Counted from the stretch's first letter, positions 2,591-22,518 are shown. The stretch: 24,000 nt of DNA from Oleiharenicola lentus (GCF_004118375.1 NZ_SDHX01000001.1:1095693-1119692); one strand, 5' to 3'. Made by a program: numbers and translations. Notes: a model not told the origin generated them from the letters alone.

Positions 2591-2604
2591 TTGACCCGCA
2601 TCAA
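2591..2604 (+). promoter_or_regulatory. FNR/Dnr-type box 1 (TTGACCCGCATCAA, then ggc)
   Basis: Matches TTGAT-N4-ATCAA. GATAAT lies at 2627-2632, a 22-bp spacer after the box. The ATG of the downstream gene is at 2638. Confidence 0.65.
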
Positions 2605-2637
2605 GGCCGGGCGCGGCGGGATTGACGATAATGGGTC

Positions 2638-3450
2638 ATGTCCACCGCCACGCTGCCCATTCCTTCGTTCCCGCTCCAACGGCCGGTTCCGGTTGCTTCG
2701 GTGTTTCTGCCGAAGGAGCACGGCTCGTGGTCGCTCGCGCTGGAACCGCTCGCGCTCGGCCTGCTGGTTGCGCCGTCGTGGGCGGGTGGGGCGTTGGCCG
2801 GGGCGGCGGTGACGGGGTTCTTTGCCCGGCGGCCGCTGAAGGCGGCCCTGGATGCAACCCCTTCTCTTCGGCGCCAGGCAGCACGGCGGGCCCTGGCCCT
2901 GTTGGTCGTGCTGGCTGGCGTCGGACTGGTTCAATCGCTCGTGCTCTCGCCGTGGACCGCCTTCTGGCCGCTGCTGCCGGCGGCGGCGCTGGGTTTGGTT
3001 TTCGTCTGGTTCGACGCGCAGGGTGAATCCCGCGCGGCGGCGGCCGAGGTGGCGGGCAGCGCGGCGTTCGCATTCGTGCCCGCGGCATTCGTCACGCTTG
3101 CCGGCGGCGACGCGCCAACCGCCTTCGCGCTCGCAGTCCTCGCGCTCGCCCGCAGCGTGCCGGCCGTGCTCGCCGTGCGCTCCTACCTCCGGATGGCGAA
3201 AGGCGGGGCTCCGCGCCGCACGCTCTCGCTGGTCGCGGCGGCGGTCGCGCTCCTGGCTTCGCTCGGCCTGGTGCTGACCGCCCACATGCCTTCCGTCGCC
3301 GTTCCGCTGGCGGTGGTCCTTTTTGCCCGGGTCCTCTGGCTGCTGGGCCCGTGGCGTCCGACCTGGCCGGCCAAACGGATCGGCATGATGGAAGCCGCGC
3401 TCGGCCTGCTCTACGTGGCGCTGCTCGGCCTCGGCTGGCCCGCTGTGTGA
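2638..3450 (+). CDS. YwiC-like polytopic membrane protein
   Basis: The N-terminal LPKEHGSWSLALEPLALGLL resembles the P-x-x-HGAW motif that opens YwiC-like family proteins. About 8 hydrophobic segments. Sits immediately upstream of nirK, behind its own box. Confidence 0.5.
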   Translation: MSTATLPIPSFPLQRPVPVASVFLPKEHGSWSLALEPLALGLLVAPSWAGGALAGAAVTGFFARRPLKAALDATPSLRRQAARRALALLVVLAGVGLVQSLVLSPWTAFWPLLPAAALGLVFVWFDAQGESRAAAAEVAGSAAFAFVPAAFVTLAGGDAPTAFALAVLALARSVPAVLAVRSYLRMAKGGAPRRTLSLVAAAVALLASLGLVLTAHMPSVAVPLAVVLFARVLWLLGPWRPTWPAKRIGMMEAALGLLYVALLGLGWPAV

Positions 3451-3461
3451 AGCGCCAACCT

Positions 3462-3475
3462 TTGATCCGTATCAA
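3462..3475 (+). promoter_or_regulatory. FNR/Dnr-type box 2 (TTGATCCGTATCAA, then ggc), perfect consensus half-sites
   Basis: Perfect TTGAT-N4-ATCAA. TACTCT lies at 3498-3503 (22-bp spacer). The nirK ATG is at 3528. Confidence 0.75.
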
Positions 3476-3527
3476 GGCATCGCCCCGCGCTCTTCGCTAC
3501 TCTCACCCCCCCAGAAACCCAACCGCC

Positions 3528-5027
3528 ATGAAAACATCCCGCGTAATCCCCGCCGCTCTCCTCGCCCTGGTGCTCGCCGCGCCTGCTTTCGCCTCCGAGG
3601 GCCCGACCGATGCCAAGGGCCCGGTCCTGCTGCCGCCCGACGTGCAGGCCCTGCCGGTCGAGCAGGCCATCCTCACCGCGCCACCCCACGTGCCGCCACC
3701 GATCAAGCGCAAGCACGCTGCGCGCGTCGTCGTTAACCTCGAGGTGCGTGAGGTCGTCATGCGCATCGCCGACGGCGCCGAATACACCTTCTGGACCTAC
3801 GGCGGCTCCGTGCCCGGCTCGTTCATCCGCATCCGCGAGGGCGATGTCGTGGAGTTCACGCTCAACAACCACCCGTCCTCGAAGCTCCCGCACAACATCG
3901 ACCTTCACGCCGTCACGGGCCCCGGCGGCGGCGCGGCCTCGACCTTCACCGCGCCGGGCCACGGCTCGAAGTTTACTTTCAAGGCCCTCAACCCCGGCCT
4001 CTACGTCTATCACTGCGCGACAGCGCCCGTGCCCATGCACATCGGCAACGGCATGTATGGCTTGATCCTCGTCGAGCCGAAGGACGGCCTGCCGTCCGTG
4101 GACAAGGAGTTCTACGTCATGCAGGGCGAGTTCTACACTCAGGGCGGCTTCGGCGCCTCCGGCCTGCAGACTTTCGACATGGCGAAGTCCATCGATGAAC
4201 ACCCCACCTATGTCCTCTTCAACGGCTCGGTCGGCGCACTCGTCGGCGACAAGGCCCTGGACACCAAGGTCGGCGACCACGTGCGCGTCTATTTCGGCGT
4301 GGGCGGTCCCAACCTTACCTCCTCGTTCCACGTCATCGGCGAAATTTTCGACAAGGTCTGGACCGAGGGCGGCATGAAATACGCCCAGGAACACGTGCAG
4401 ACGACGATGGTCCCCTCGGGCGGTTCGGCCATCCTTGAGTTCAAGATGGACGTGCCCGGCACCTACGTGCTCGTGGACCACTCGCTCAGCCGCGCGTTCA
4501 ACAAGGGTGCGCTCGGCATGCTCAAGGCCTCCGGTCCCGAGGACCGCGTGATCTACTCCGGCAAGGAGATCGACGCCGTTTATTTCGGTGCCGCCGCCGA
4601 AGAGGGTTCCGCCTCCGCCCGGCGCGAGGCCGAGCTGAAGGCGAAGATCGCGGCCGAGATCAAATCCAACCCCGCCATCGCCAGCCTCACCAAGGAGGTG
4701 CAGCTCGAGCGCGGCAAGCAGGTCTATATGGCCAGCTGCTTCGCCTGCCACCTGCCCGACGGCAAGGGCATGGCCAACGTCTTCCCGCCGCTCGCCGGTT
4801 CCGACTACCTCAAGGCCGACCGCGACCGCGCGATCCGCATCGTGCTCAAGGGCCTCACCGGCCCGGTCACCGTCAACGGCGTGAACTACAACAGCGCCAT
4901 GCCGCCGCAACCGCTCACCGACGAGCAGGTCGCCGACGTGCTCACCTACGTGACGAACAGCTGGGGCAACGAAGGCCCCGCCACCACCGTGGACGACGTC
5001 CGCCGCGTGAAGAACGAGACACACTAA
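3528..5027 (+). CDS. nirK: copper-containing nitrite reductase NirK with fused C-terminal mono-haem cytochrome c domain
   Basis: Signal peptide MKTSRVIPAALLALVLAAPAFA. T1/T2 copper ligands in HNIDLHAV and YVYHCATAPVPMHIGNGMYG (AniA-like class). The C-terminal domain carries CFACH plus a distal SAMPP methionine. The track ORF start (3351) would read through the promoter, so ATG 3528 is preferred. Confidence 0.9.
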   Translation: MKTSRVIPAALLALVLAAPAFASEGPTDAKGPVLLPPDVQALPVEQAILTAPPHVPPPIKRKHAARVVVNLEVREVVMRIADGAEYTFWTYGGSVPGSFIRIREGDVVEFTLNNHPSSKLPHNIDLHAVTGPGGGAASTFTAPGHGSKFTFKALNPGLYVYHCATAPVPMHIGNGMYGLILVEPKDGLPSVDKEFYVMQGEFYTQGGFGASGLQTFDMAKSIDEHPTYVLFNGSVGALVGDKALDTKVGDHVRVYFGVGGPNLTSSFHVIGEIFDKVWTEGGMKYAQEHVQTTMVPSGGSAILEFKMDVPGTYVLVDHSLSRAFNKGALGMLKASGPEDRVIYSGKEIDAVYFGAAAEEGSASARREAELKAKIAAEIKSNPAIASLTKEVQLERGKQVYMASCFACHLPDGKGMANVFPPLAGSDYLKADRDRAIRIVLKGLTGPVTVNGVNYNSAMPPQPLTDEQVADVLTYVTNSWGNEGPATTVDDVRRVKNETH

Positions 5028-5055
5028 AACGGTAGCGGCGCTCTATGAACGCCGT

Positions 5056-5074
5056 CGGCGGTCACAGACCGCCG
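5056..5074. repeat. intergenic GC hairpin CGGCGGTCacaGACCGCCG nested inside a 9-bp outer inverted repeat (GTAGCGGCG 5032-5040 / CGCCGCTAC 5070-5078)
   Basis: The complementarity was read directly. It lies between the nirK stop and the nirV-like start. No T-run follows. Confidence 0.4.
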
Positions 5075-5091
5075 CTACAACCAACCCTCCC

Positions 5092-5958
5092 ATGACTGCC
5101 ACCGTCCGCCGCGTCCGCCCTCCCGTCTGCGGCTCCGCCCTGTGTAACGTAATACGTTACACATGTGCCGGGGTGGCGCTCTTGGTGTTGACGGGCGTGG
5201 CCTTGGGTGGATCGGAAATCGAAAATCCTAATTCAAAAATCGAAAATGCCGCCATGCGGATGGTGCCGTCCGGCACCTATGTGCCCCTCCAACGCTCGAC
5301 CAAGGACCCCGAGCAGGTGCCCGTCGCCGCCTTCCGGCTCGACACCGCGCCCGTCACCAACGCCGACTTCCTCGCCTTCGTCACTGCCAACCCGAAGTGG
5401 CGTCGCTCCGCCGTGAGCCGGCTTTTCGCCGACACCTCCTATCTGGAGCACTGGACCGGCGACCTCGAGCCCGGCTTGCGCGCTCCGCTCGACGCCCCCG
5501 TCGTGCGCGTGTCGTGGTTCGCCGCGCGCGCCTACGCCCGCTGGTCCGGCAAGCGCCTGCCCAGCACCGCCGAGTGGGAACTCGCCGCCGCCGCCGGCTA
5601 CACCACCGCCTTCGGCAAGAACGAACCCGACTTCAACCGCGACCTCTACGCCTGGCTCGCCCGCCCGGTGCCGGAGGTGCTGCCCTCGGTCGCCACCGCC
5701 AAGCCCACGCTCCACGGCGTGCGCGGCCTGCACGGTCTCGTGTGGGAATGGGTGGACGACTTCAACACCGCCATGGTCACCGGTGAATCGCGCGCCGACA
5801 CCGGTCTGGAGCGCGACCTCTTCTGCGGCGCCGGAGCCGCCGGGGCGAAGGAGACGAGCGACTACGCCGCCTTCATGCGCTCCGCCCTTCGTGCCTCCCT
5901 GAAAGCCAACAACACCACCACCTCGCTCGGCTTCCGCTGCGCGGCTTCTCTCCGATGA
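5092..5958 (+). CDS. nirV: FGE-sulfatase/SUMF1-family protein, NirV-like
   Basis: MVPSGTY...RVSWFAARAYARWSGKRLPSTAEWELAA...GLHGLVWEWVDD...LGFRCA are the conserved blocks of the formylglycine-generating-enzyme fold. Position directly after nirK matches the known nirK-nirV arrangement. Confidence 0.7.
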   Translation: MTATVRRVRPPVCGSALCNVIRYTCAGVALLVLTGVALGGSEIENPNSKIENAAMRMVPSGTYVPLQRSTKDPEQVPVAAFRLDTAPVTNADFLAFVTANPKWRRSAVSRLFADTSYLEHWTGDLEPGLRAPLDAPVVRVSWFAARAYARWSGKRLPSTAEWELAAAAGYTTAFGKNEPDFNRDLYAWLARPVPEVLPSVATAKPTLHGVRGLHGLVWEWVDDFNTAMVTGESRADTGLERDLFCGAGAAGAKETSDYAAFMRSALRASLKANNTTTSLGFRCAASLR

Positions 5959-6722
5959 AAACGACGATTCCCCTGATCACCCTCCTCTTCGCGGCCAGCA
6001 TCGCCGCCTCCGACAAACCCGCCGCCTGCTGCCCGGCCGACACCAAGCCGAAGGCCGGCAGCTGCTGCACCGTTGAAAAGGCGGACAAGGCGGCCTGTTG
6101 CGCGGAAAAGCCCTCCGCCCCGGCCGCGTGCTGCGCGGAGAAGGCTCAACCCGCGGCGTGCTGCGCCCAAGCCGACGCACCCAAGCCCGCCGCCTGCTGC
6201 GAAGAGATCAAGGGCTCCGAAACCACCGCCTTCTCCTCCGAATCGCTTTATCAGCTCGAGGCCGGCTTTACCGACGACCGGGGCCGTTCCTTCACCCTCG
6301 GCTCGCTCCGCGGCCGCCCCGTCGTGCTCACCATGTTCTTCGCCTCCTGCAGCTACGCCTGCCCGCTGCTGCTCACCGACATGCAGGCCATCCATGCGAA
6401 GCTGCCGGCCGACATCCGCGACCGGGCTGCGTTCGTGCTCGTGTCCTTCGACGTTGCCCGCGACACGCCGGCCGCGCTCGCGCAATACCGCGCCGACCGC
6501 CACCTCGACGCGCAGTGGACGCTGCTCCACGGCGACGACGACGCGGTGCGCGAGCTCGCCGCGCTGCTCGGCGTGAAGTTCAAGCAGGAGGCCGACGGCC
6601 AGTTCGCCCACTCCAACCTCATCACCATTCTCAACGGCGGGGGCGAGGTCGTCCACCAGCGCACCGGCCTCCGCGGCGGCCTCGACGAAACCGCCCAGGC
6701 CATCGTGGCCGCGTCGCGCTGA
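5955..6722 (+). CDS. Sco1/SenC-family copper chaperone with Cys-Cys repeat N-terminal extension
   Basis: ATGA start/stop overlap with the upstream gene. Signal/anchor sequence present. Sco thioredoxin fold with VVLTMFFASCSYACP (CxxxC) and a downstream His (FAHSNLI). The region before the fold contains six CC dipeptides. Confidence 0.8.
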   Translation: MKTTIPLITLLFAASIAASDKPAACCPADTKPKAGSCCTVEKADKAACCAEKPSAPAACCAEKAQPAACCAQADAPKPAACCEEIKGSETTAFSSESLYQLEAGFTDDRGRSFTLGSLRGRPVVLTMFFASCSYACPLLLTDMQAIHAKLPADIRDRAAFVLVSFDVARDTPAALAQYRADRHLDAQWTLLHGDDDAVRELAALLGVKFKQEADGQFAHSNLITILNGGGEVVHQRTGLRGGLDETAQAIVAASR

Positions 6723-6852
6723 AACGGTGCTTCGAACCTGAGGAACGTATGCCGGAGGTCACCGAGCAGCTGGTTTCAAGTGGCATGGGTCTCCCGACCC
6801 GTGACCTCGTTCCCCACCGGTCGGCAGCCCCGGGCCAACTCTTCTGCTGCCC

Positions 6853-7281
6853 ATGACCACGGCTCTGCCGCAGATTCTCGATCAGCGCCGGCCCGAGATT
6901 CGGGCGCGGTGGGAGGCGCTGTTGCGCCTTGAAAAACCTGCCACGGCAATGGCCACGCCGGACATCCTCGTCCACCTCTTCGACCACACCCTCGACGACG
7001 TGCTGGCGCCCAAGCGTCCGGCCGGGAAACCGGTCGCCGCCGAGGGCAAACTGCCTGGCCGGTGTCATTGCAATCCGCTGCGCCCGTATTTCGCCACGCT
7101 TGAGCAGGCCCTGCTCGAAGCGCTCATCTGGGCGCAAGCCGCCGACTCCTCCCTCGACGCCGAGACCCGCGTCGCCCAGGTCGGCGAACTTTGCGAACGC
7201 CTGCGCCGCGTTGCGCACCGGGAGATCCTGCTCCTCGACGGCGTCTGCCAGTGCATCTGTGCGGAGTTGCCGCCGGCTTGA
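6853..7281 (+). CDS. hypothetical 142-aa soluble protein with CHC and CQCIC motifs
   Basis: Normal composition and an ATG start. The N-terminus (ILDQRRPEIRARWEALL) is reminiscent of RsbRD_N-type helical sensor domains. Its TGA stop lies inside box 3. Confidence 0.45.
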   Translation: MTTALPQILDQRRPEIRARWEALLRLEKPATAMATPDILVHLFDHTLDDVLAPKRPAGKPVAAEGKLPGRCHCNPLRPYFATLEQALLEALIWAQAADSSLDAETRVAQVGELCERLRRVAHREILLLDGVCQCICAELPPA

Positions 7282-7291
7282 TTCGCGTCAA
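7278..7291 (+). promoter_or_regulatory. FNR/Dnr-type box 3 (TTGATTCGCGTCAA, then ggc)
   Basis: TAGGGT lies at 7314-7319 (22-bp spacer). The azurin ATG is at 7327. Confidence 0.7.
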
Positions 7292-7326
7292 GGCGGGCGC
7301 GCGTCCGGCGCGCTAGGGTGGGGGCG

Positions 7327-7836
7327 ATGAAAATCCATTCCACCCTGATCCTCCCGTTTCTCGCCGCCGGTGCGCTCCTGCTTTCCGCCTGCGGCAAATC
7401 CGAAGCTCCCGCTGCCGCCGCGTCTGCGGCAGCCCCCGCCCCTGATGGCGTGAAAGCCGTCAGCATCACCGCCGACGACAGCATGAAGTTCAGCGTGACA
7501 GAGATCCGCGCCGTGGCCGGCGAGAAGGTGCGCGTAACGTTCAAGAACGTCGGTCGCATGCCCAAGCAGGCCATGGGGCATAACTGGATTTTGCTCGTGC
7601 CGATGGCCGACAATGAAGTGCTCGCGCTCGCCCAGGCGGCCGCCGCCCGCGCGCCGGAATACCAACCGGCCGATGCCACGAAAGTTCTCGCGCACACCAA
7701 GCTGCTCGGGCCCAACGAGAGCGACACCGTCGAGTTCACCGCACCCGCCACGCCCGGCGACTATCCCTTCGTCTGCACCTTCCCCGGCCACGCGGCCCTG
7801 ATGAAGGGCAAACTCATCGTCGCGCCCAAGTCTTGA
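7327..7836 (+). CDS. azu: lipoprotein azurin (type-1 blue copper protein)
   Basis: Lipobox LLLSAC. Azurin signatures AMGHNWIL and YPFVCTFPGHAALMKG supply the His, Cys, His and Met copper ligands. Confidence 0.85.
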   Translation: MKIHSTLILPFLAAGALLLSACGKSEAPAAAASAAAPAPDGVKAVSITADDSMKFSVTEIRAVAGEKVRVTFKNVGRMPKQAMGHNWILLVPMADNEVLALAQAAAARAPEYQPADATKVLAHTKLLGPNESDTVEFTAPATPGDYPFVCTFPGHAALMKGKLIVAPKS

Positions 7837-7846
7837 TGCGCGTCAA
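7833..7846 (+). promoter_or_regulatory. FNR/Dnr-type box 4 (TTGATGCGCGTCAA, then ggc)
   Basis: Overlaps the azurin TGA stop (7834-7836). TACAAC lies at 7869-7874 (22-bp spacer). ATG is at 7882, with GTG at 7879. Confidence 0.7.
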
Positions 7847-7881
7847 GGCCGCGCGCGGCGCGGCCTGCTACAACCTTCGTG

Positions 7882-9300
7882 ATGTCTGCCCCGGCCGCCG
7901 TTCCCCTCGCGTCCCCGACCTTCGTCCCGTCTCCGGCGGTGGCGGCGGCCGGTGCGCGTTTTCCCGCCGCGGCCCGCGGTTGGTTCGCCTTTGGCGTCGG
8001 CAGCCTCGTGCTTGCGGGTCTGCTCTCGCTCCTGCTCGTCGTCGGCCGCCTGCCGTTCCTAGGCTGGCTGTTCACCGACCCGCTGTTCTTCAAACGCGCC
8101 CTCGTGGTGCATGTCGATCTGGCAATCGTCATCTGGTTTCAGGCCGGCGCCCTCGCGTATCTCGCCTGGGCGGTCGGCTCCCGGGTGCCACGCGGCCTCA
8201 CCGTCGCGTCGGTCGTGCTCGCCGGGCTCGGCATCCTTGGCCTGCTGGCCGGCGCGGTGATGCCGGGGGCACAGCCCATCCTCGCCAACTACGTGCCGGT
8301 CGTGGATCACCCGGTGTTTGTTGCCGGGCTCGTGGCGTGGTTCGCCGGCAGCGGCCTGTATTTTGCCGGCGCGCTCGCGGTGCCGGCGGAGCCGTCGGCG
8401 GCGCTGCCCGATGACGCGCTCGTCGCGCTGCGTGCCTCGGCCGCGGCGCACCTCATCGCGCTGGCGACCTTCGCCGCGGCTTGGCGCACGACGCTGCCGG
8501 GCCTGCCGGCCATCGGCTACTACGAGTTGGTGGCCTGGGGCGGGGGACACGTCATGCAGGTCGGCAACGTCGCCCTGATGCTCGGGCTGTGGTTGCTCCT
8601 GCTCCGCCGCTGGTCCGGCGAGAGCGTGGTCTCGCCCGCCACCATCCGCTGGCTGGCGGTGGCGCTGGTGCTGCCGCAGGCGGTGATGCCCTGGGTGGCC
8701 TGGGGCGGCACGTCGCGGCCGGCTTATTCCGAGATCGCGACGCAGCTGATGCGATGGACGATTTTCCCCGTGGTTCTGATCGTGCTCGGCCTGGGTATCC
8801 GGCACGTCGTGCGGCATGCGGCGAACCGCTCCGCCGGGGGCGGCTGGCGCCTCGTCGGCCTCGCCGGCAGCGCGCTGCTCACCGTGCTGGGCTTCGTGCT
8901 CGGCGCCTTCATCCGCGGCTCCAGCACGCTCGTGCCGGGCCATTACCACTGCGCCATCGGCGCAGTCACTCTCGCGCTGATGACGGCGGCCTACGACTTC
9001 AGCCGCGAGGCCGCGCCGCGCGCCCTCGGCCCGTCGCCGCGGCTCATCCGCTGGCAGCTCGTGCTCTTCGGCGCGGGGCAGGCCGTGTTCGGCCTCGGCT
9101 TTGCACTGGCCGGCGCCTTCGGCCTCGGGCGCAAGCAATACGGCGTCGAGCAGCATGTGCGCTCGCTCGGCGAATACCTCGGCCTCGGCGTGATGGGCCT
9201 CGGCGGTCTCGTGGCGGTGGCCGGCGGCCTCCTCTTTCTCGCCGTCATGCTCCGCGGTCTCGCGGCGTGGCGCACGCGTTCCCTTTCCCCCTCACCATGA
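7882..9300 (+). CDS. divergent 12-TM heme-copper-oxidase subunit-I paralog lacking the helix-VII His-His pair
   Basis: Clear block homology to the subunit I at 10033: ANYVPVVDHPVF vs TSYLPLLAHPAF, WGGGHVMQVGNVALMLGLWLLL vs WGLGHQSQQVNVCAMVAVWYLL, and VPGHYHCAIGAV vs IPGHFHVTVVGG. The helix-II His (VVHVDLAIVIWF) is kept. No HH is present where SAHHLL sits in the paralog. Confidence 0.7.
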   Translation: MSAPAAVPLASPTFVPSPAVAAAGARFPAAARGWFAFGVGSLVLAGLLSLLLVVGRLPFLGWLFTDPLFFKRALVVHVDLAIVIWFQAGALAYLAWAVGSRVPRGLTVASVVLAGLGILGLLAGAVMPGAQPILANYVPVVDHPVFVAGLVAWFAGSGLYFAGALAVPAEPSAALPDDALVALRASAAAHLIALATFAAAWRTTLPGLPAIGYYELVAWGGGHVMQVGNVALMLGLWLLLLRRWSGESVVSPATIRWLAVALVLPQAVMPWVAWGGTSRPAYSEIATQLMRWTIFPVVLIVLGLGIRHVVRHAANRSAGGGWRLVGLAGSALLTVLGFVLGAFIRGSSTLVPGHYHCAIGAVTLALMTAAYDFSREAAPRALGPSPRLIRWQLVLFGAGQAVFGLGFALAGAFGLGRKQYGVEQHVRSLGEYLGLGVMGLGGLVAVAGGLLFLAVMLRGLAAWRTRSLSPSP

Positions 9301-9446
9301 AAAACGAATCCGAAAAACACCCCTGGCAGAAGGTCCTCGACAATCCGTGGCTGCTCCTGGCCCTCGGCGTCCTCGTGCCCTTCCTGTCCTACACCGCGTG
9401 GGGCTGGATCGAGCTCCTGCTCATCAAGCCCGCGCAGCTCCCCTGA
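9297..9446 (+). CDS. 49-aa single-TM membrane peptide (possible small oxidase subunit)
   Basis: ATGA overlap with the upstream stop. Sequence MKNESEKHPWQKVLDNPWLLLALGVLVPFLSYTAWGWIELLLIKPAQLP has one hydrophobic helix. It forms the last 49 codons of track ORF 8481..9446; the rest of that ORF is an Arg/Pro-rich artefact. Confidence 0.5.
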   Translation: MKNESEKHPWQKVLDNPWLLLALGVLVPFLSYTAWGWIELLLIKPAQLP

Positions 9447-9458
9447 ACCGCCGCCGCC

Positions 9459-10010
9459 ATGAGCCTCCGCCCTCTCACCTCCCCCTGGTTCCACGCCCCC
9501 GCCGGCCATGAAAAGCTCTGGCTCGGTGTCGCCATTCTCTGGTGCTTCGTGATGTCGCTGATGATGCCCTACTGGCACTTTCGCGGGAAACAGAACAGCT
9601 CCGGCGAGGCCTACGCCGTCATGCCCGCCGATTTTCTCGCGCGCACCGAGAAATTCGTCGAGGCCAACCGCGTCGGCACCTTCAAGAACCCCACGCCCAA
9701 CGCCTTCGCGGCCGAGCTGCCGCTGGTGGAGCCGCCGGCCGGCGGCGACGCCTACCTCGTGGGCCGCATGTGGCAGTGGTATCCCGCGCTGCGCCTGCGG
9801 CAGGGCGAGACCTACCGCATCCACCTCTCCGCGCTCGACCTGCAGCACGGCTTCTCGCTCCAGCCGCTCAACATGAATTTCCAGGCCGTGCCCGGCTACG
9901 ACCACGTGCTCACGCTCACGCCCACGTCGAAGGGCGAGTTCACCATCGTCTGCAACGAATTCTGCGGCATCGGGCACCACGCGATGACCGGCAAGATCTT
10001 CGTCGAATAA
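9459..10010 (+). CDS. HCO subunit II with complete CuA site (cupredoxin domain, one N-terminal TM helix)
   Basis: CuA ligands are present: DLQHGFSL (His) and CNEFCGIGHHAM (C-x-E-x-C-G-x-x-H-x-x-M). Confidence 0.8.
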   Translation: MSLRPLTSPWFHAPAGHEKLWLGVAILWCFVMSLMMPYWHFRGKQNSSGEAYAVMPADFLARTEKFVEANRVGTFKNPTPNAFAAELPLVEPPAGGDAYLVGRMWQWYPALRLRQGETYRIHLSALDLQHGFSLQPLNMNFQAVPGYDHVLTLTPTSKGEFTIVCNEFCGIGHHAMTGKIFVE

Positions 10011-10032
10011 CCCCGCGACCCTCCCGCCTCCC

Positions 10033-11757: not shown

Positions 11758-11766
11758 TTCCGGAAC

Positions 11767-11847: not shown

Positions 11848-11858
11848 ACCAAGCAAAC

Positions 11859-14947: not shown

Positions 14948-14955
14948 GTCCAAGC

Positions 14956-14969
14956 ATGACCTGCATCAA
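14956..14969 (+). promoter_or_regulatory. FNR/Dnr-type box 5 (ATGACCTGCATCAA, then ggc)
   Basis: One mismatch in the left half-site. TATCCT lies at 14992-14997 (22-bp spacer). ATG is at 15020. Confidence 0.55.
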
Positions 14970-15019
14970 GGCGGCGCCCCGCTTCCGGTGCTATCCTGTC
15001 CGCCTCACGTGAACCACCG

Positions 15020-15253: not shown

Positions 15254-15341
15254 GACGGCCGCGTGTGACGAAAACTTTTCCAACAAGGGCTTGGCGCGCG
15301 CACGCGGGCCGCTCTTACTGGGGTCGTTGCTCTGACTTGCG

Positions 15342-15818
15342 ATGACCCTGCCCCCGCCTCGCACCCGCATGCTTCTGCTCGTGGCCATCGCCGCCACGCT
15401 GGGACTGTTCGCGGGCCTCGGCGGCTATACGTTTACCTACGCGCACGGGCTGTCGTATTTTTCCAACGACCCCACGGCGTGCGTGAACTGCCACATCATG
15501 CGCGAGCAGTTCGACGGCTGGCTGAAGGGCCCGCACCATGCCGTCGCCACCTGCAACGACTGCCACACGCCGCACAGCTTCATCCCGAAATACCTCAGCA
15601 AGGCCGAAAACGGCTTCTGGCACTCCAAGGGTTTCACGCTCCAGGATTTTCACGAGCCGATCATCATCCGCAAACGGAACATCGCCGTGCTCCAGGAAAA
15701 CTGCGTGTCCTGCCACCAGCAGATCGTGGATGGCATCAACACCCACCCCGGCGACCCGCAGAAGATGCTCGATTGTCTCCATTGTCACCGCGAGGTCGGC
15801 CACGGGCCGATGAAGTGA
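15342..15818 (+). CDS. nrfH: NrfH/NapC-family membrane tetrahaem cytochrome c quinol dehydrogenase
   Basis: N-terminal TM helix. Four CxxCH motifs: CVNCH, CNDCH, CVSCH, CLHCH. Typical size of about 160 aa. Confidence 0.85.
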
Positions 15819-15834
15819 ACTTTCATTCAACCGC

Positions 15835-15965
15835 CACGAATGAACACGAATACACTCGAATCAGAACCAACCCAACGCGCGCGTCATCCTGAGCCGTGCG
15901 AAGGATCCAAGGGGAAGTCGCATCACGCGCCGTCTGCCTGGATCCTTCGCTGCGCTCAGGATGAC
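15835..15965. repeat. composite intergenic repeat element: three tandem 10-mers, then an imperfect 27-bp inverted repeat
   Basis: Tandem 10-mers CACGAATGAA / CACGAATACA / CTCGAATCAG occupy 15835-15864. GTCATCCTGAGCCGTGCGAAGGATCCA (15883-15909) pairs with TGGATCCTTCGCTGCGCTCAGGATGAC (15939-15965). GC content is locally lower than in the flanks. Confidence 0.65.
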
Positions 15966-16038
15966 GGTGCGGGGAGTTTTGCGACGTTCGGGTCGTTCAT
16001 CCGTAGATTTATAACCTAGCTGCCTCGCCCCTCCCGCC

Positions 16039-17505
16039 ATGAAAACCACCCCCGACTCCCGTCAGCACGGCCTCGCCACCTGGGCGCTCATCGCGATCCT
16101 CGCCGCCACGGCCGGCGCCACCTTTCTCACGCTGATGCTCTACCAGAACATCGTCGCCCGGAAGGCCGAGGCCACCAAGGACGTGTTCCGCGTCGTCGAG
16201 GTGAGCGACGAGACCGTGGACCCCGCGATCTGGGGCAAGAACTACCCGCGCCAATACGACAGCTACCGGCGCACCGTGGACACCGAGCGCACGAACCACG
16301 GTGGCAGCGAGGCCTTCCAGCACCTCGACAAGGATCCGGTGTGGCGCCGGCTGTTTGCGGGCTACGCCTTCGCCGTGGATTACCGCGAGGAACGCGGCCA
16401 CGCCTACATGCTCATCGATCAGCGCGAGACGGAGCGAGTGAAGAACTTCAAGCAGCCCGGCGCCTGCCTCCAGTGCCACGCCTCCGCGGTGGACACCTAC
16501 CGCAAGGAGGGCATCAAGGCCGGCATCCCCGCGGGCAAGGAGCATTGGGAAGAGCAGATTCAGAAGGGCTTCGAGGTCGTCTGCGCCATGCCCTACAGCG
16601 AGGCGACCAAACTCGTGGAGCATCCGGTCTCCTGCATCGACTGTCACGACGCCGAGACCATGAACCTGCGCGTCAACCGCCCCGGCTTCCTCAACGGCAT
16701 CCGCGCGCTCGCCAATTCCGACTACCCGACGCCGCACCTGCCCAGCATCGAGCGCTGGCGCAAGGACGGTCGCAAGGGGCGCTATGAGCCCAACTCGGAC
16801 GCCACGCGCCAGGAAATGCGCTCGATGGTCTGCGCGCAGTGCCACGTCGAATATTACTTCAAGGGCGACAAGAAGCTCGTGACCTACCCGTGGGACAAGG
16901 GCCTGAAGGTCGAGCAGATCGAGACCTACTACAACGAGGTCGGGCACACCGACTTCAAGAACAAGGAGAGCGGCGCGCCCATCCTGAAGGCCCAGCACCC
17001 GGAGTTCGAGATGTGGAGCCAGGGCATTCATGCCCGCAGCGGTGTGGCCTGCGCCGACTGCCACATGCCTTATGTCCGCGAGGGCGCCATCAAGGTCAGC
17101 AACCACCATGTCCGCTCCCCGCTGCTCAACGTCGCCCAGGCCTGCCAGTCCTGTCACCGTATCCCCGAGCAGGAAATCAAGGCGCGAGCGCTCCTTGTGC
17201 AGGACCGCAACGCCGCGCTGCTCACGCGCGGCGAGGCGGCGGTGGTCGGCCTGTTGGACGCCATCGCCTTGGCCCAGAAAGCCGGCGCCACCGACGATCA
17301 GCTCAAAACCGCCCGAGACCTGCACCGCAAGGCGCAGTGGCGCCTCGACTTCGTGGCGGCCGAAAACTCGATGGGCTTCCACGCCCCGCAGGAGGCTGCG
17401 CGCATCCTCGCCGAGGCGATCGACTATGCCCGCCAGGGCGAAATCGCCGTTGCGAAGGAGACCAGGCCGGCGGGCGGCGGTGCCGTTGCGGGCGCCCTGA
17501 AGTAA
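16039..17505 (+). CDS. nrfA: pentahaem cytochrome c nitrite reductase NrfA (CxxCH active-site variant)
   Basis: Signal/anchor sequence present. Five haem motifs: CLQCH, CIDCH, CAQCH, CADCH, CQSCH. CAQCHVEYYF is the conserved NrfA Ca-site/active-site block. Confidence 0.9.
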   Translation: MKTTPDSRQHGLATWALIAILAATAGATFLTLMLYQNIVARKAEATKDVFRVVEVSDETVDPAIWGKNYPRQYDSYRRTVDTERTNHGGSEAFQHLDKDPVWRRLFAGYAFAVDYREERGHAYMLIDQRETERVKNFKQPGACLQCHASAVDTYRKEGIKAGIPAGKEHWEEQIQKGFEVVCAMPYSEATKLVEHPVSCIDCHDAETMNLRVNRPGFLNGIRALANSDYPTPHLPSIERWRKDGRKGRYEPNSDATRQEMRSMVCAQCHVEYYFKGDKKLVTYPWDKGLKVEQIETYYNEVGHTDFKNKESGAPILKAQHPEFEMWSQGIHARSGVACADCHMPYVREGAIKVSNHHVRSPLLNVAQACQSCHRIPEQEIKARALLVQDRNAALLTRGEAAVVGLLDAIALAQKAGATDDQLKTARDLHRKAQWRLDFVAAENSMGFHAPQEAARILAEAIDYARQGEIAVAKETRPAGGGAVAGALK

Positions 17506-17590
17506 GTTCGGGTGGCATGGGTCTCCCGACTCATGCTGCCGCGCGCCGAATGGATCGCGGGTCGTGAGATCCGCGGCACATCGCCAAAAC

Positions 17591-18820
17591 ATGAATCGCG
17601 GCACGCCCACAGTAATTCCCGAATTCCCGCCCGACGCCTCGCTGGCCCGGCGCTTCCGCGTCGCGTGGGGGTTCTTGCTCGTCTCCGTCCTGATTGGCCT
17701 CGGCTTGCGGCTCCAGTGGGTGTGGCCGTGGACGACGCTGGAATACAACCACCTGCTTCACGCGCACTCGCACGTCGCCTTCCTCGGGTGGGTGTTCAAC
17801 GCGTTTCTGGTCGTCGCGCTGCGGCATTTCGTGCCGCCGGAGGAGACGCGCGACTACGACCGGATCTGGTGGGCGATGCAGCTCGCCGTGCTGGGCATGC
17901 TGGGCACGTTTCCCTTCCAGGGCTACGCCCCGGCCAGCATCGCTTTTTCCACGCTGCACATGGCCGCGGCGTTCGTGTTCGCGGTGAAGCTCTGGCGCCG
18001 GAACCGCGCGGTCCCGGCGGCGCGGCCGCATCTGCGGCTGGCGCTCGCGTTTATGATCCTGTCCGGCGGCGGGCCGCTCGCCCTCGGCGTGTTGCCGGCG
18101 CTGGGGCTGCGCGAGTCGCCCGCCTACACGCTCGCGATCTATTTCTACCTGCACTGCCAATACAACGGCTGGTTTCCGTTTTTCCTGCAGGCCCTGCTGC
18201 TGCAACGCGCGCAGGAGCGGGGCTGGCGCGTGGATGACACCGCCGCAACCGGCGCCGCGTGGTGGCTCGCCGTCGGCGGGTTACTGACCTTTGCGCTTTC
18301 GACGCTTTGGTGCGGACCGCCGGCCGTGGTCGGCTGGATTGCGGTAGCGGGCGGCGTGATGCAGGCTGTCGGCGCGGTGCGTTTTGTCTGCGCCGTGCGC
18401 GGCGTGCCTTTGCCGGCTGACCGAGTCGTGCGTTTGTTGGCGTTTGTTGCCCTGGGGGCCTGGCTGCTCAAACATGTCCTGCACCTTGCCGGCCCCTGGC
18501 CCGGGCTCGCCGAACTCACCCAGCAGCGCTTCGTGGCCATCGCCTTCCTGCATCTCGTTTTTCTCGGTCTCGTGACGCCCGCTCTGCTTGTCTGGGCGCA
18601 CGGGTGCGGTTGGTTGCCGGCCGGAGCGCGGTTGCGGTTGGGCGCGGGTCTGTTGCTCGCGGGCACGGCGATCACGGAGTCTTTGCTGGTAGTGCCGACC
18701 TTCGTGGGTGGTCTGCCGTTCGGCTGGATGCTGCCGCTGCCCCTGTTGGTCGCCTCCGCCCTTATCGTGGCGGGGGTGGCGGTGCTCCGGCCGCGCGGGT
18801 CCGATTTGCCGGCGGCATGA
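17591..18820 (+). CDS. 12-TM His-rich membrane protein, family uncertain (possibly NnrS-like)
   Basis: About 12 hydrophobic segments. His motifs within helices: LLHAHSHVAFLGW, STLHMAAAF, YFYLHCQYNGWF, AFLHLVFLG. ATG 17591 is preferred over 17564. Its TGA stop lies inside box 6. Confidence 0.35.
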   Translation: MNRGTPTVIPEFPPDASLARRFRVAWGFLLVSVLIGLGLRLQWVWPWTTLEYNHLLHAHSHVAFLGWVFNAFLVVALRHFVPPEETRDYDRIWWAMQLAVLGMLGTFPFQGYAPASIAFSTLHMAAAFVFAVKLWRRNRAVPAARPHLRLALAFMILSGGGPLALGVLPALGLRESPAYTLAIYFYLHCQYNGWFPFFLQALLLQRAQERGWRVDDTAATGAAWWLAVGGLLTFALSTLWCGPPAVVGWIAVAGGVMQAVGAVRFVCAVRGVPLPADRVVRLLAFVALGAWLLKHVLHLAGPWPGLAELTQQRFVAIAFLHLVFLGLVTPALLVWAHGCGWLPAGARLRLGAGLLLAGTAITESLLVVPTFVGGLPFGWMLPLPLLVASALIVAGVAVLRPRGSDLPAA

Positions 18821-18830
18821 CCTGCGTCAA
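18817..18830 (+). promoter_or_regulatory. FNR/Dnr-type box 6 (ATGACCTGCGTCAA, then ggc)
   Basis: TAGGGT lies at 18853-18858 (22-bp spacer). ATG is at 18876. Confidence 0.55.
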
Positions 18831-18875
18831 GGCGCGCGGCGCGGCCTTGGGCTAGGGTGGGGCGTTCGCCATGCC

Positions 18876-19340
18876 ATGAGAACCACCCTCTATTATACCT
18901 TGCTGACGCTCCATATTCTCGGCGCCACGATTTGGACCGGCGGACACGTCGTGCTGGCCACAACGGTGTTGCCGCGGGCGCTGCGCGCAAAACGCGCATC
19001 TATCCTCACCGATTTCGAGCAGGGCTACGAACGCGTCGGCATGCCCGCTTTGGCCGTGCAGATTGTCACCGGTCTGTGGCTGGCGCACCGGCTGCTCGGC
19101 GCGCCGGCGAACTGGTTCAGCGACGCGCCGCTCGCGCACATCGTGCACGTGAAAATCCTCTGCCTCGCGGGCACTGCCGCGCTGGCGATCCATGCCAAGA
19201 CACGCGTCATCCCGCGCCTCAACGACGACAACCTCCCGGTGATGGCCTGGCACATTGCCGGCGTCACGGGGCTCTCCGTGCTCTTTGTGCTGGCCGGCGC
19301 CAGTGCGCGTCTGGGCGGTTTTCCCTTTTTTCAACCCTGA
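18876..19340 (+). CDS. CopD-like 4-TM membrane protein (154 aa)
   Basis: LTLHILGATIWTGGHVVL resembles the CopD-family L-H-x-L-x-A-x-x-W-x-G-G opening helix. Four TM segments. The in-frame ATG at 18876 follows the box/-10 pair. Confidence 0.4.
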   Translation: MRTTLYYTLLTLHILGATIWTGGHVVLATTVLPRALRAKRASILTDFEQGYERVGMPALAVQIVTGLWLAHRLLGAPANWFSDAPLAHIVHVKILCLAGTAALAIHAKTRVIPRLNDDNLPVMAWHIAGVTGLSVLFVLAGASARLGGFPFFQP

Positions 19341-19352
19341 ACCAAAACCGCC

Positions 19353-19706
19353 ATGTCCGCCGCCCTCCTTCCCTCCGACCAAGCCGCCGTATGCCCGCTG
19401 ACGGCTCCCGCGCAAAATGTAGCCCACGGCATCGTGAGCCAGGCTGTGCTCACCGCGCCCGGCCTGCGCGTGACGCTGTTCCGTTTTGCCGCCGGTCAGG
19501 AACTGTCCGAGCACACGACCCCGGCCCGCGCGCTGGTGCAGGTGTTGGCGGGCGTCTGCGAGTTCACGTTTCCCGACCGCAAACAAAGGATGGTCGCGGG
19601 CGATCTCCTGCACATGCCGCCGAAGCTGCCGCACGCCGTGCGCGCTGTCGAGGATCTGACGATTCTCATCACGCAGGCGACGCCGCCGGCCAAGCCGCTT
19701 GATTAG
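19353..19706 (+). CDS. cupin-domain protein (117 aa)
   Basis: G-x-E-L-S-E-H-T...VLAGVCEFTF...GDLLHMPPKLPHAV fits the two-motif cupin pattern. It starts 12 bp after the upstream gene. Confidence 0.6.
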   Translation: MSAALLPSDQAAVCPLTAPAQNVAHGIVSQAVLTAPGLRVTLFRFAAGQELSEHTTPARALVQVLAGVCEFTFPDRKQRMVAGDLLHMPPKLPHAVRAVEDLTILITQATPPAKPLD

Positions 19707-19783
19707 CCAGAGAGACGCAGAGACACAAAGACTGGGTCGATCAGAACTTTGTGACGTCGAGTCTTTGTGGTGAACATCTCCGA

Positions 19784-20440
19784 TTAAGAAACCAACGCAT
19801 CCCGCTCCCGATAGAACGCCCGGAGGGACTCAGCCTCGGCGGTGAAGGCCACGCCGTCGAGGAACGTCGCCCAGCCGGCTTCCTCGTGGCGCACGCCGAG
19901 CAGGAGTTCGCGCAGGATGAGCACGTTCCAATCGTGCGAGACGTGCAGGTCGAGCCGCCGGCCGCCGGCGACGGGCTCCCGCAACCTGGCCGTGACGTAG
20001 GCGAGTTTGCGCCGGGCGATATCGGGCGCGCGCAGGATCAGCTGCTCCGAGACCTGGTTGGTGAACCAGAGCCGCACAAACTTCTCGCCATGCAGGCCGC
20101 TCAGCCGGCCCGTCTCGATTTGGTCGAGGATGTAGGCGACGCCCAGTTCCGGCCGCGTGCCCACCAGTTCGACGTTCAGCCCCGCCCGCGCTGCGCCGGC
20201 CGCGACGCGCTCGGCCGTCTGCTGGCAGCGTTTGACCGGACTGTGAAAGAGGCGCACCCGGTCGAAGCCGCGGATCGCCGCGCCGAAGGCCTCGGCGTCG
20301 CGGTGCCCCGCCTCCGTCAGCTCCGCCGCCAGCGGTTCGCGCGGATCCGCGATCGGGTGGCGGGCGGCGTGGCGCAGCACGGCGGCGGCGCGGTCCGCCG
20401 GGAGGGTGGAGAGGGTGGCAAGCAGTTCGCTTCCTTGCAT
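19784..20440 (-). CDS. histidine phosphatase (phosphoglycerate-mutase-like) family protein
   Basis: AVLRHAARHPI (RHA-x-R catalytic motif) followed by LTEAGHRDAEAFG. The ATG at 20438-20440 is preferred to the GTG at 20446. Confidence 0.55.
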   Translation of the reverse strand: MQGSELLATLSTLPADRAAAVLRHAARHPIADPREPLAAELTEAGHRDAEAFGAAIRGFDRVRLFHSPVKRCQQTAERVAAGAARAGLNVELVGTRPELGVAYILDQIETGRLSGLHGEKFVRLWFTNQVSEQLILRAPDIARRKLAYVTARLREPVAGGRRLDLHVSHDWNVLILRELLLGVRHEEAGWATFLDGVAFTAEAESLRAFYRERDALVS

Positions 20441-20538
20441 GCCCACGGTGATGCGCGCTCCGTGGCCCGACGGTCAAGTCGCCAGACGGCACACTTCAGG
20501 CGCGACTTGCGCGCAAACCCCGTGCTAGCTTGCGCCCG

Positions 20539-21273
20539 ATGCCGACCGCCCCACGCGCCGCCGATCTCAAGCTAACCGGACTCGTCAGTTCCCTGCGTTG
20601 CTGCCAGCTCTTCACCGGGTTGTCACCGGAGGACCTGGCCGCCATCGCCGGCTTCACTTTGGTGCTGCGGCTGGCCAAGGACGATTATCTCTTCCACGAG
20701 GGCGAATCTTCGCGTGGTTTCTACGTCGTGCAGACCGGCGCGATCAACGTGCACCGCGTGAGCGCCGCCGGCAAGGAGCAGGTCATCCACGTGTTCCGCA
20801 TGGGCGAGTCGTTTGCCGAGGCGGCACTGGCCTCGGCCACCGGTTATCCGGCCAACGCGCGCGCGGTCGAGCCTTCCACCGTGCTGCTGATCCCCAAGGC
20901 CCCCATCCTCGAGCTGATCGGCCGCCGGCCGGATCTCGCGCTGCGCATGCTCGGCTCCATGAGCGCGCACCTGCGCGTGCTGGTGGGCGCCCTGGACGAC
21001 CTCACGCTCAAGGATGTCGAGACCCGCATGCTCAACTGGCTGGTGAAGCACGGGCGTGACGCGAAGGACGGGGTCATCGAGCTGCCCGGCACCAAGCGGG
21101 TGCTCGCGGCAGAACTGGGCACCAGCAGCGAAACGCTTTCCCGCACGCTGGCCCGGTTGCGCGATGACCGGCTCATTACGGTCGCAGCCAAGAGTATCAA
21201 GGTGCACGACGCCGCCCGGCTCGGGTCGATGCTACGCCGCAATCTCGGCGAAGTCGGCGCGCCGGGTGCTTGA
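20539..21273 (+). CDS. Crp/Fnr-family transcription factor, Dnr/NnrR/NssR-like (no FNR-type N-terminal Cys cluster)
   Basis: cNMP-binding-like beta-roll (YLFHEGESSRGFYVVQTGAINVHR...GESFAEAAL). C-terminal HTH TKRVLAAELGTSSETLSRTLARL carries the E--SR recognition motif that reads TTGAT half-sites. The track start at 20530 is TTG; the ATG is at 20539. Confidence 0.85.
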   Translation: MPTAPRAADLKLTGLVSSLRCCQLFTGLSPEDLAAIAGFTLVLRLAKDDYLFHEGESSRGFYVVQTGAINVHRVSAAGKEQVIHVFRMGESFAEAALASATGYPANARAVEPSTVLLIPKAPILELIGRRPDLALRMLGSMSAHLRVLVGALDDLTLKDVETRMLNWLVKHGRDAKDGVIELPGTKRVLAAELGTSSETLSRTLARLRDDRLITVAAKSIKVHDAARLGSMLRRNLGEVGAPGA

Positions 21274-21283
21274 CGCCGGTCAA
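21270..21283 (+). promoter_or_regulatory. FNR/Dnr-type box 7 (TTGACGCCGGTCAA, then ggc)
   Basis: Overlaps the regulator's TGA stop (21271-21273). CATACT lies at 21306-21311 (22-bp spacer). ATG is at 21330. Confidence 0.65.
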
Positions 21284-21329
21284 GGCCCCGCCGGACGTTC
21301 CGGCGCATACTCCCGCAGGAATCCGCCCC

Positions 21330-21746
21330 ATGGCCCTGACCGATCCCGCTCTTCCCGCACCTTTGTTCGACCGCCTCGGTGGTCGTCCGCGTTTGCTGCA
21401 AATGCTGCGGTATTTCTACGCCGACGTCCGTCAGCATCAGGAGATCGCGCCGATTTTTGCCGCGCACATCCACGACTGGCCGGCCCATTTGGAAAAGATC
21501 GCTGACTTTTGGTCGGGCGCGACCGGCGGCCCGGCGCGCTACGCCGGCCCCATGCCCTTCAAGCATGTGTCCCTCGGACTGGAGGAGAGGCATTTCGCGG
21601 CCTGGCTCGGGCTCTGGGCCCGGCATTGCCGCGCCCACCTGCCGGCGCGGGAAGCCGGGGAGCTGATCGCCCTGGCCGAAGGCATCGGCCAGCGGTTGCG
21701 TCAGATCATCACCCTGCACGGCGGCGGAAAATTTCCGCCCGCTTGA
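21330..21746 (+). CDS. truncated haemoglobin (2-on-2 globin)
   Basis: LFDRLGGRPRLLQMLRYFYADVRQHQEIAPIF...IADFWSGATGGPARYAG...KHVSLGLEERHFAAWLGLW follows the trHb pattern: L-x-x-x-GG, then F-Y, then F-W-x-x-x-x-GGP-x-Y, then H. Confidence 0.75.
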   Translation: MALTDPALPAPLFDRLGGRPRLLQMLRYFYADVRQHQEIAPIFAAHIHDWPAHLEKIADFWSGATGGPARYAGPMPFKHVSLGLEERHFAAWLGLWARHCRAHLPAREAGELIALAEGIGQRLRQIITLHGGGKFPPA

Positions 21747-21756
21747 TCCGCATCAA
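21743..21756 (+). promoter_or_regulatory. FNR/Dnr-type box 8 (TTGATCCGCATCAA, then ggc)
   Basis: Perfect half-sites. Overlaps the globin TGA stop (21744-21746). TAGGGT lies at 21779-21784 (22-bp spacer). ATG is at 21796. Confidence 0.75.
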
Positions 21757-21795
21757 GGCAAGGCGGCCGCCAGGCGGGTAGGGTGGGGCTCCATC

Positions 21796-22518
21796 ATGAG
21801 CACCACGACCCTGTCTGACCTCACTCCCGACTCCCGCATCGGCGATCTCGTCGCCACCCGTCCCGGCCTCGCCCGGATTTTTGAAGAGCTGCGCATCGAC
21901 TACTGTTGCGGCGGCAAGCAAAGCCTGGCGGCCGCCAGTGAAAGCCGCGGACTTTCCGTCACCACCGTCATCGCACTGCTGGACGCCGCTGCCGCCGCGC
22001 TGGCCTCCGGTCCGGCGGAAGTGGATGCCGCGGGCATGTCGCTGAAGGACCTGGCCGACCACATCGAGCATACCCATCACGCCTACCTGAAGGAAGAGTT
22101 GCCGCGCCTGGCCGAGATGGCGGAGCGCGTGGCCTACAAGCACGGTCATCGCGATGCGCGGTTGCAGGAGATGGCCACCACGGTCGTCAGCCTGACCCAG
22201 GAAATGTTCCAGCACATGCACAAGGAGGAGGCGGTGCTGTTTCCGCTGGTCCGGCAGATCGAGGGCGGCCTCCGCGGGGGCTTTGCCTCCTCGATCGGCG
22301 ACCCGATCCGCTGCATGGAAGAAGAACATGACAGTGCCGGTCGCGCGACGGAGCGGCTGCGGGAGCTGACCGACGGGTTCACGCCCGATGCGGACGCCTG
22401 CAACACCCACCGCGCCCTGCTGCACGGGCTGGCCCGCTTCGAGGCCGACCTGCACCGCCACGTGCACAAGGAGAACAACGTGATGTTCCCGCGGGCGCTG
22501 GCCCTGGTCTCGGCCTGA
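21796..22518 (+). CDS. ytfE: iron-sulfur cluster repair di-iron protein (RIC; ScdA/YtfE/DnrN family)
   Basis: ScdA_N motif FEELRIDYCCGGKQSL, followed by a hemerythrin-like domain with H-x-x-x-E and HKEE/HKEN histidine/carboxylate motifs. Confidence 0.85.
   Translation: MSTTTLSDLTPDSRIGDLVATRPGLARIFEELRIDYCCGGKQSLAAASESRGLSVTTVIALLDAAAAALASGPAEVDAAGMSLKDLADHIEHTHHAYLKEELPRLAEMAERVAYKHGHRDARLQEMATTVVSLTQEMFQHMHKEEAVLFPLVRQIEGGLRGGFASSIGDPIRCMEEEHDSAGRATERLRELTDGFTPDADACNTHRALLHGLARFEADLHRHVHKENNVMFPRALALVSA

Follow-up and report, generated by a model that had tools for sequence, protein, structure and literature searches.

A 24,000-nucleotide (nt) stretch of the Oleiharenicola lentus genome (G000:C1:1095693-1119692; "the window" hereafter means this whole stretch) carries eight short promoter regions of a single design, in which an Fnr-type inverted repeat (the box) is followed at a fixed distance by a -10-like hexamer and then by a start codon. 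We consider it likely that these are class II, activator-dependent promoters of the sigma-70 type that belong to a Dnr-like, nitric oxide (NO)-responsive Crp/Fnr regulon, that a ninth member lies at G000:C1:3053164 in the same genome (4.71 Mb, 65% GC, two contigs), and that some of the mRNAs made from them are leaderless.

Geometry of the eight promoters

Searching the window for TTGA-N6-TCAA with at most one mismatch gave 13 matches, against 2.6 expected, and eight of these are the promoter boxes. All eight lie on the + strand and are directly followed by GG. They conform to the Fnr-type inverted repeat TTGAT-N4-ATCAA, six as TTGA-N6-TCAA and two as ATGA-N6-TCAA, and share the consensus TTGAyNNNNrTCAA(GG), in which the GG adjoins the promoter-proximal half-site. 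In the list below, the spacer is the number of nt between the end of the box and the hexamer and the gap is the number of nt between the hexamer and the start codon; leader lengths are predicted by taking +1 to lie 6-8 nt after the hexamer.

Promoter 1, 2591-2640, + strand: box TTGACCCGCATCAA at 2591-2604, hexamer GATAAT at 2627-2632, gap 5, ATG 2638
Gene of promoter 1, 2638-3450, + strand: YwiC-like membrane protein; predicted +1 at A2638 (preceded by C), predicted leaderless
Promoter 2, 3462-3530, + strand: box TTGATCCGTATCAA at 3462-3475, hexamer TACTCT at 3498-3503, gap 24, ATG 3528
Gene of promoter 2, 3528-5027, + strand: NirK fused to cytochrome c; predicted C/A-rich leader of ~18 nt without a Shine-Dalgarno (SD) sequence
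Promoter 3, 7278-7329, + strand: box TTGATTCGCGTCAA at 7278-7291, hexamer TAGGGT at 7314-7319 (extended TAGGGTGGGG), gap 7, ATG 7327
Gene of promoter 3, 7327-7836, + strand: azurin-like cupredoxin lipoprotein; predicted +1 at G7326 or A7327, leader 0-1 nt
Promoter 4, 7833-7884, + strand: box TTGATGCGCGTCAA at 7833-7846, hexamer TACAAC at 7869-7874 after TGc, gap 7, ATG 7882
Gene of promoter 4, 7882-9300, + strand: 472-amino-acid HCO-subunit-I paralog; predicted +1 at G7881 or A7882, leader 0-1 nt
Promoter 5, 14956-15022, + strand: box ATGACCTGCATCAA at 14956-14969, hexamer TATCCT at 14992-14997 after TGc, gap 22, ATG 15020
Gene of promoter 5, 15020-15253, + strand: DUF2249 protein, followed by nrfHA; predicted leader ~16 nt
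Promoter 6, 18817-18878, + strand: box ATGACCTGCGTCAA at 18817-18830, hexamer TAGGGT at 18853-18858, gap 17, ATG 18876
Gene of promoter 6, 18876-19340, + strand: CopD-like membrane protein; predicted leader ~11 nt
Promoter 7, 21270-21332, + strand: box TTGACGCCGGTCAA at 21270-21283, hexamer CATACT at 21306-21311, gap 18, ATG 21330
Gene of promoter 7, 21330-21746, + strand: truncated globin; predicted leader ~12 nt
Promoter 8, 21743-21798, + strand: box TTGATCCGCATCAA at 21743-21756, hexamer TAGGGT at 21779-21784, gap 11, ATG 21796
Gene of promoter 8, 21796-22518, + strand: YtfE/RIC di-iron iron-sulfur repair protein; predicted leader ~5 nt

At all eight sites the hexamer begins at position +23 from the end of the box, corresponding to a spacer of exactly 22 nt. 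Seven of the hexamers fit nAnnnT, six start with TA and five fit TAnnnT strictly. The off-consensus cases are GATAAT and CATACT, which lack the first T, and TACAAC, which lacks the last T and is preceded by TGc, as in an extended -10 element. When spacers of 10-35 nt were scanned at the eight sites, nAnnnT occurred seven times at 22 nt, never at 21 or 23 nt and at most once at any other distance (binomial P ~7e-11, or ~2e-9 after correction for 25 offsets). Across the whole genome, the full signature of box, GG, 22-nt spacer and -10-like hexamer was found at nine places, the eight sites of the window and C1:3053164, and nowhere else. This ninth site (G000:C1:3053164-3053214) consists of the box TTGATCCAGGTCAAgg, 22 nt, TACACT and cctccc (gap 6), and ends in the ATG of an ABC-transporter ATPase gene; its orthologue in another genome (G057, locus L103) has a gap of 13.

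The region upstream of the hexamers is devoid of a recognizable -35 element. The -35 position reads AGGCnn, and no sigma-70 promoter with consensus -35 and -10 elements was found in the 20 kb from 2400 to 22300, where shuffled sequences led us to expect 1.3. Since the spacer is 22 nt, and with +1 taken as the seventh base after the hexamer, the box is centered at -41.5. Class II FNR sites are likewise centered at -41.5 (PMC3032703), and the layout, with its predicted +1, is the canonical class II geometry of CRP/FNR promoters.

An earlier, sequence-only reading of the window had proposed this arrangement. Motif search and sequence extraction recovered all eight of its boxes, hexamers and coordinates, as well as its distances from box center to ATG (40.5, 59.5, 42.5, 42.5, 57.5, 52.5, 53.5 and 46.5 nt) and the extended motif common to three of the hexamers. 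The stated distance of exactly 23 nt from the last base of the box to the start of the hexamer held at every site, with no hexamer at the adjacent spacings, and the proposed -41.5 activator geometry is supported by the 22-nt spacer, the lack of a consensus -35 element and the presence in cis of a DNR-like regulator, described below. Its designation of all the hexamers as TAnnnT was too strict and has to be relaxed to the nAnnnT form given above.

These control regions are extremely compact. In five of the eight promoters, the TGA of the first half-site of the box is also the stop codon of the upstream gene (7279-7281, 7834-7836, 18818-18820, 21271-21273 and 21744-21746, all on the + strand); the TGA in the box of promoter 4, for instance, terminates the azurin-like gene. 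In these five cases the entire intergenic region of 45-49 bp is made up of box, spacer, -10 hexamer and start codon only. At promoter 6, an open reading frame (ORF) of just two codons, ATG-CCA-TGA at 18871-18879, overlaps the start of the CopD-like gene (ATGCCATGA). It is missing from the Oleiharenicola metagenome-assembled genome (MAG) L001, which reads cacgccATG at this position, and is probably a chance occurrence.

Regulator and conservation across Opitutaceae

The probable cognate activator of the boxes is encoded within the window, immediately upstream of the globin gene:

20539-21273, + strand: Crp/Fnr-family regulator with the Pfam domains cNMP_binding and HTH_Crp_2; box 7 contains its stop codon TGA

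Its best match in the PDB is DNR from P. aeruginosa (3dkw, E = 6e-24), with FNR behind at 5e-11, and all of its NCBIfam matches fall below the cut-off. As read from its sequence, the protein lacks the N-terminal cysteine cluster of FNR and has the recognition helix ETLSR, which contains the E--SR motif. The genes placed under the boxes comprise nirK, ytfE/RIC, the globin gene, the cupredoxin gene, the HCO cluster and DUF2249-nrfHA; the 472-amino-acid HCO paralog, a membrane protein, gave no Pfam match. We infer the NO responsiveness of the regulator solely from its target genes nirK, ytfE/RIC and the globin gene.

To place the window sites in a wider context, we used a comparison set of 61 Opitutaceae genomes from 60 genera. 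The pattern box-GG-N20-NANNNT gave 122 matches in this set, compared with nine for a reversed-pattern control. With the spacer left free, TAnnnT hexamers occurred 78 times at 22 nt, 10 times at 21 nt, 11 times at 23 nt and 0-5 times at each of the other distances from 12 to 34 nt, so that the 22-nt spacing accounts for 78 of ~144 family sites. On this comparative evidence, the promoter layout is inherited across the family. Outside Opitutaceae, a phylum-wide scan with the pattern returned matches near the control level in AT-richer genomes, and similar sites with 21-22-nt spacing in a few families.

Among relatives, one palindrome flanked on either side by GG-type sequence often serves two divergent promoters, with each hexamer at exactly 22 nt. 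Such loci include L060 (G015:C52:30801-30870), L050 (G023:C1:4497743-4497812), L084, L110 and L113. The window contains no divergent boxes, and all eight of its promoters are unidirectional.

A site that overlaps the -35 region can also repress, and the box could in principle be an operator at which a repressor keeps the promoter blocked in the absence of an NO or nitrite signal. There is, however, no -35-like hexamer to occlude, given the AGGCnn sequence at the -35 position and the lack of any consensus promoter. A box phase fixed at -41.5 to within 1 bp typifies promoters that Crp/Fnr proteins activate in the class II manner, DNR, which the regulator resembles, is an activator, and the single boxes of relatives serve two divergent -10 elements at 22 nt each. 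We regard an operator function as highly improbable.

Under the activator model, the regulator would bind TTGAyNNNNrTCAA(GG) as a dimer upon NO or nitrite stress. The box, centered at -41.5, overlaps the position of the missing -35 element, and the bound dimer would recruit RNA polymerase to the TAnnnT-type -10 element exactly 22 bp downstream. Transcription would then begin 6-8 nt after the hexamer.

Start codons and predicted leaderless transcripts

The activator model has direct consequences for the 5' ends of the mRNAs. Transcripts of the YwiC-like, azurin-like, HCO-paralog and ABC-ATPase genes are predicted to start at the A of the ATG or at the preceding base, leaving a leader of 0-1 nt; to translate them, the ribosome would recognize the 5'-terminal AUG directly. 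The other five genes would have leaders of ~5-18 nt without an SD sequence and would be translated by an SD-independent route, which evidently must serve most genes of this SD-poor genome. No in-frame upstream starts were found for these five genes, GTG 15009 and ATG 18871 both being out of frame.

To examine start-codon placement across the family, we took 116 sites with box and hexamer from other genomes of the family and recorded at each where an ORF of 60 codons or more first opens with ATG. Gaps of 0-4 nt were absent. The first ATG lay at gap 5 in five cases, at gap 6 in 22 and at gap 7 in five (32 at gaps 5-7), followed by three at gap 8, seven at 9, four at 10 and five at 12, with a thin declining tail. 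When the register was moved by -20 or +40 nt at the same sites, no peak resembling that at gap 6 appeared. Family starts at gap 6 were ATG in 22 cases and GTG in three, and in the present genome all four leaderless candidates, with gaps of 5, 7, 7 and 6, start with ATG.

Individual gene families differ in how their start codons are placed. YwiC-like orthologues, retrieved by tblastn without filters, were found in 16 genera including that of the present genome, and 13 of these carry the box and hexamer. Ten of the 13 have an in-frame start at gap 6 (eight ATG, two GTG), and the remaining three have gaps of 7, 8 and 10. The number of residues preceding the conserved PKEHGSW motif ranges from 13 to 32 across the orthologues; this constancy of the gap despite a variable N-terminus indicates that the start is set by the promoter and not by the protein. 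A gap of 5-6 nt was likewise found in nine of 11 Opitutaceae orthologues of YtfE (11 nt in this genome), whereas YtfE homologues from outside the family have no box and carry AGGAGG-type sites instead. By its YtfE relatives, the organism belongs in Opitutaceae, close to Oleiharenicola, Lacunisphaera and Opitutus MAGs. DUF2249 homologues of four other genera show a gap of 6, and azurin-like homologues in the family show gaps of 6-12. The CopD-like gap of 17 recurs in the Oleiharenicola MAG L001.

For the HCO paralog, all 10 orthologues have the box, the 22-nt spacer and the hexamer, and their first in-frame starts lie at gaps of 6, 6, 8, 10, 12, 13, 14, 14, 17 and 24. For NirK, every orthologue has a predicted leader, at gaps of 17-38. 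These leaders are C/A-rich (e.g. cccagaaacccaaccgcc) and contain no purine-rich motif, as seen at 3504-3527 in the window and at the orthologous loci L050, L059, L071, L074, L075, L083, L088, L092, L101 and L112. We therefore predict that the YwiC-like, YtfE and DUF2249 genes are usually leaderless across the family and that NirK never is.

The leaderless reading of the window genes is supported by these comparisons, provided that the start codons are assigned correctly. If the true starts lay downstream in frame, for example at GTG 2701 of the YwiC-like gene, the mRNAs would have ordinary leaders of at least 60 nt. Such a shift would be in keeping with the Pfam YwiC match, which begins only at residue 24, with the location of this GTG 63 nt downstream of ATG 2638 (gap 68), and with the poor conservation of the N-terminal segments of the YwiC-like protein and the HCO paralog. 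Against it, an in-frame start lies 6-10 nt after the hexamer in 13 genera, whatever its distance to the conserved core, and in each of the 10 orthologues of the HCO paralog the start codon next after the hexamer has the reading frame of the protein. The azurin-like N-terminus (MKIHSTLILPFLAAGALLLSAC) is a lipoprotein signal peptide that begins at ATG 7327. Misassigned starts thus appear very unlikely.

It could also be argued that the hexamers are unused or of minor importance and that most expression comes from long read-through mRNAs, on which the genes are internal cistrons behind long 5' regions. The genes with boxes lie close together in one orientation, no intrinsic terminator was found between them in 2400-22300, five of the eight boxes contain the stop codon of the upstream gene, and most genes here are evidently translated without an SD sequence anyway. 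An idle hexamer, however, would not stay at exactly 22 nt in more than half of the family sites, nor would the start codon keep its 6-nt distance to the hexamer as the N-terminus of the protein changes, and the consistent absence of ATG at gaps 0-4 agrees with a constraint imposed by the transcription start site (TSS). Read-through is compatible with promoters at the boxes but leaves these spacings unexplained, and as the main route of expression we judge it unlikely.

How general leaderless starts are in this genome was a further point raised by the sequence-only reading, and a small class with TAnnnT at -12 was indeed found. Among 2638 ORFs, TAnnnT peaks exactly at -12 from the predicted starts, with 51 occurrences compared with 10-23 at other offsets. 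The T at -7 sets gap 6 apart, with a TAnnnT-to-TAnnnV ratio of 0.9 compared with 0.2-0.3 elsewhere. We considered whether the peak might be an artefact of in-frame stop codons that bound ORFs, and rejected this explanation because other in-frame offsets gave 11-23 occurrences against 51 and because the T at -7 is specific. The -12 hexamers of these genome-wide candidates are mostly of the TAG/TAA type (40 TARnnT and 11 TAYnnT), and such a -10 element at -12 doubles as an in-frame stop four codons before the ATG. The preference for TAGGnT is probably a property of the -10 element itself, because regulon hexamers at other gaps share it.

A TANNNT motif ~12 bp before the start codon is known to mark leaderless genes (PMC3160421, Zheng et al. 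2011), and in Akkermansia muciniphila, a member of the same phylum, leaderless transcripts account for 10% of mapped TSSs (PMC4782308). In the present genome the predicted leaderless class makes up ~1-5% of gene calls, compared with four of the nine regulon sites and ~28-39% of family sites. That the Opitutaceae Dnr-type NO/nitrite regulon was specifically selected for leaderless translation, with start codons fixed by the promoter at a frequency several-fold above the genome background, is possible but rather doubtful.

The remark in the sequence-only reading that the leaders show no obvious SD sequence is correct for the window, where none of the short leaders at the eight promoters contains a GGAG-type motif, but this feature is not special to the regulon. 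Upstream of all predicted starts, SD four-mers reach only ~2x background; the upstream 20 nt are C-rich, and C precedes predicted starts at -1 in 68% and at -2 in 52% of cases. The 3' end of the 16S rRNA retains GGATCACCTCCTTT, with CCTCC on the minus strand of C2 near position 935394 (reverse-complement coordinates). Verrucomicrobia, including strain IMCC26134, have been listed as SD-scarce with a conserved anti-SD sequence (PMC10783764). As SD sequences are scarce genome-wide, their lack in the leaders characterizes the lineage and does not set the regulon apart.

Several observations weigh against leaderless transcription as we propose it. Transcription of the azurin-like and HCO-paralog genes may begin at the G before the ATG, which would give a leader of 1 nt. 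Of the nine sites in this genome, just two fit the modal family geometry, one in the window at gap 5 and the ninth at gap 6, and the HCO-paralog orthologues are mostly short-leadered, with gaps of 8-24, and not leaderless. Read-through transcripts probably coexist, because no terminators lie between the genes, and transcription from upstream promoters would probably place these ATGs internally on longer mRNAs as well. The family counts come from related genomes, which are not independent samples, and the genome-wide gene and start calls are crude, being based on codon scores. The suggestion that transcription begins at the ATG of the YwiC-like, azurin-like and HCO-paralog genes is nevertheless strengthened by the gap data from the family and the orthologues, with the possible 1-nt leader of the latter two as a qualification, and the leaders previously predicted for the other five genes match the values that we recomputed.

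Relation to known promoters and significance

The proposed promoters most closely resemble the class II FNR promoters of E. coli (TTGAT-N4-ATCAA at -41.5), with which they share the palindrome, the 22-bp spacer, the lack of a -35 element and the E--SR helix of the regulator. They differ in the extra GG after the promoter-proximal half-site and in the -10 element, which is of a high-GC TAnnnT type and often TAGGnT. Furthermore, the regulator has no cysteine cluster for an Fe-S center, and the host is a Verrucomicrobium.

A second point of reference is provided by the DNR, NNR and NnrR regulators of proteobacterial denitrifiers, among which DNR (3dkw) is the best solved relative of our regulator. 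In these organisms, the nirS and norC promoters have FNR-type boxes in the class II position. Shared targets include a nitrite reductase, an NO-reductase-like HCO cluster, a DnrN/YtfE-type repair protein and copper proteins. The identity of the regulator to these proteins is, however, remote, no NCBIfam equivalog reaching the cut-off, and the regulon described here adds YwiC-like, DUF2249-nrfHA, CopD-like and globin genes. Leaderless mRNAs are predicted for many of its targets, a state other than that described in Pseudomonas and Paracoccus.

The predicted leaderless genes also share features with those of Actinobacteria and Deinococcus-Thermus (PMC3160421), namely the same hexamer at -12, mostly AUG start codons and no SD sequence, and they differ in that their promoters are predicted to be activator-dependent. 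We considered Thermus DnrT/NsrR as a leaderless precedent and rejected it, as the sites lie 50-73 nt before the start codons and ribosome-binding sites are mentioned. Our literature search for leaderless class II Fnr/Crp promoters yielded only tangential papers, and no TSS map or promoter study for Opitutaceae was found. Both components of the model are known, class II FNR/DNR geometry as well as leaderless TANNNT genes, the latter mapped in this phylum, and the mechanism is not a new one. Their combination in a Verrucomicrobial Dnr-type regulon was not found in the literature searched; what is mildly new is the family-wide, gene-specific leaderless pattern together with the extremely compact control regions.

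Promoter genetics hardly exist for Verrucomicrobiota, and the analysis provides a base-precise, testable promoter model for a denitrification and NO-stress regulon of this phylum. For the poorly annotated YwiC-like protein and HCO paralog, the model predicts where transcription and the protein begin, and it may aid the annotation of start codons in MAGs. Should the regulon, against our expectation, have been selected for leaderless translation, a control cassette of ~45-48 bp, which begins inside the upstream stop codon, would let NO switch each gene of the island independently. In most genera, the promoter itself, with its box at -41.5, its -10 element and +1 at the A of the AUG, would fix the start of the YwiC-like, YtfE and DUF2249 genes. 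Translation of such mRNAs would proceed without a leader-dependent initiation step under nitrosative stress, and if the regulon is truly enriched in leaderless starts, it would offer a natural system for studying why stress regulons favor leaderless mRNAs.

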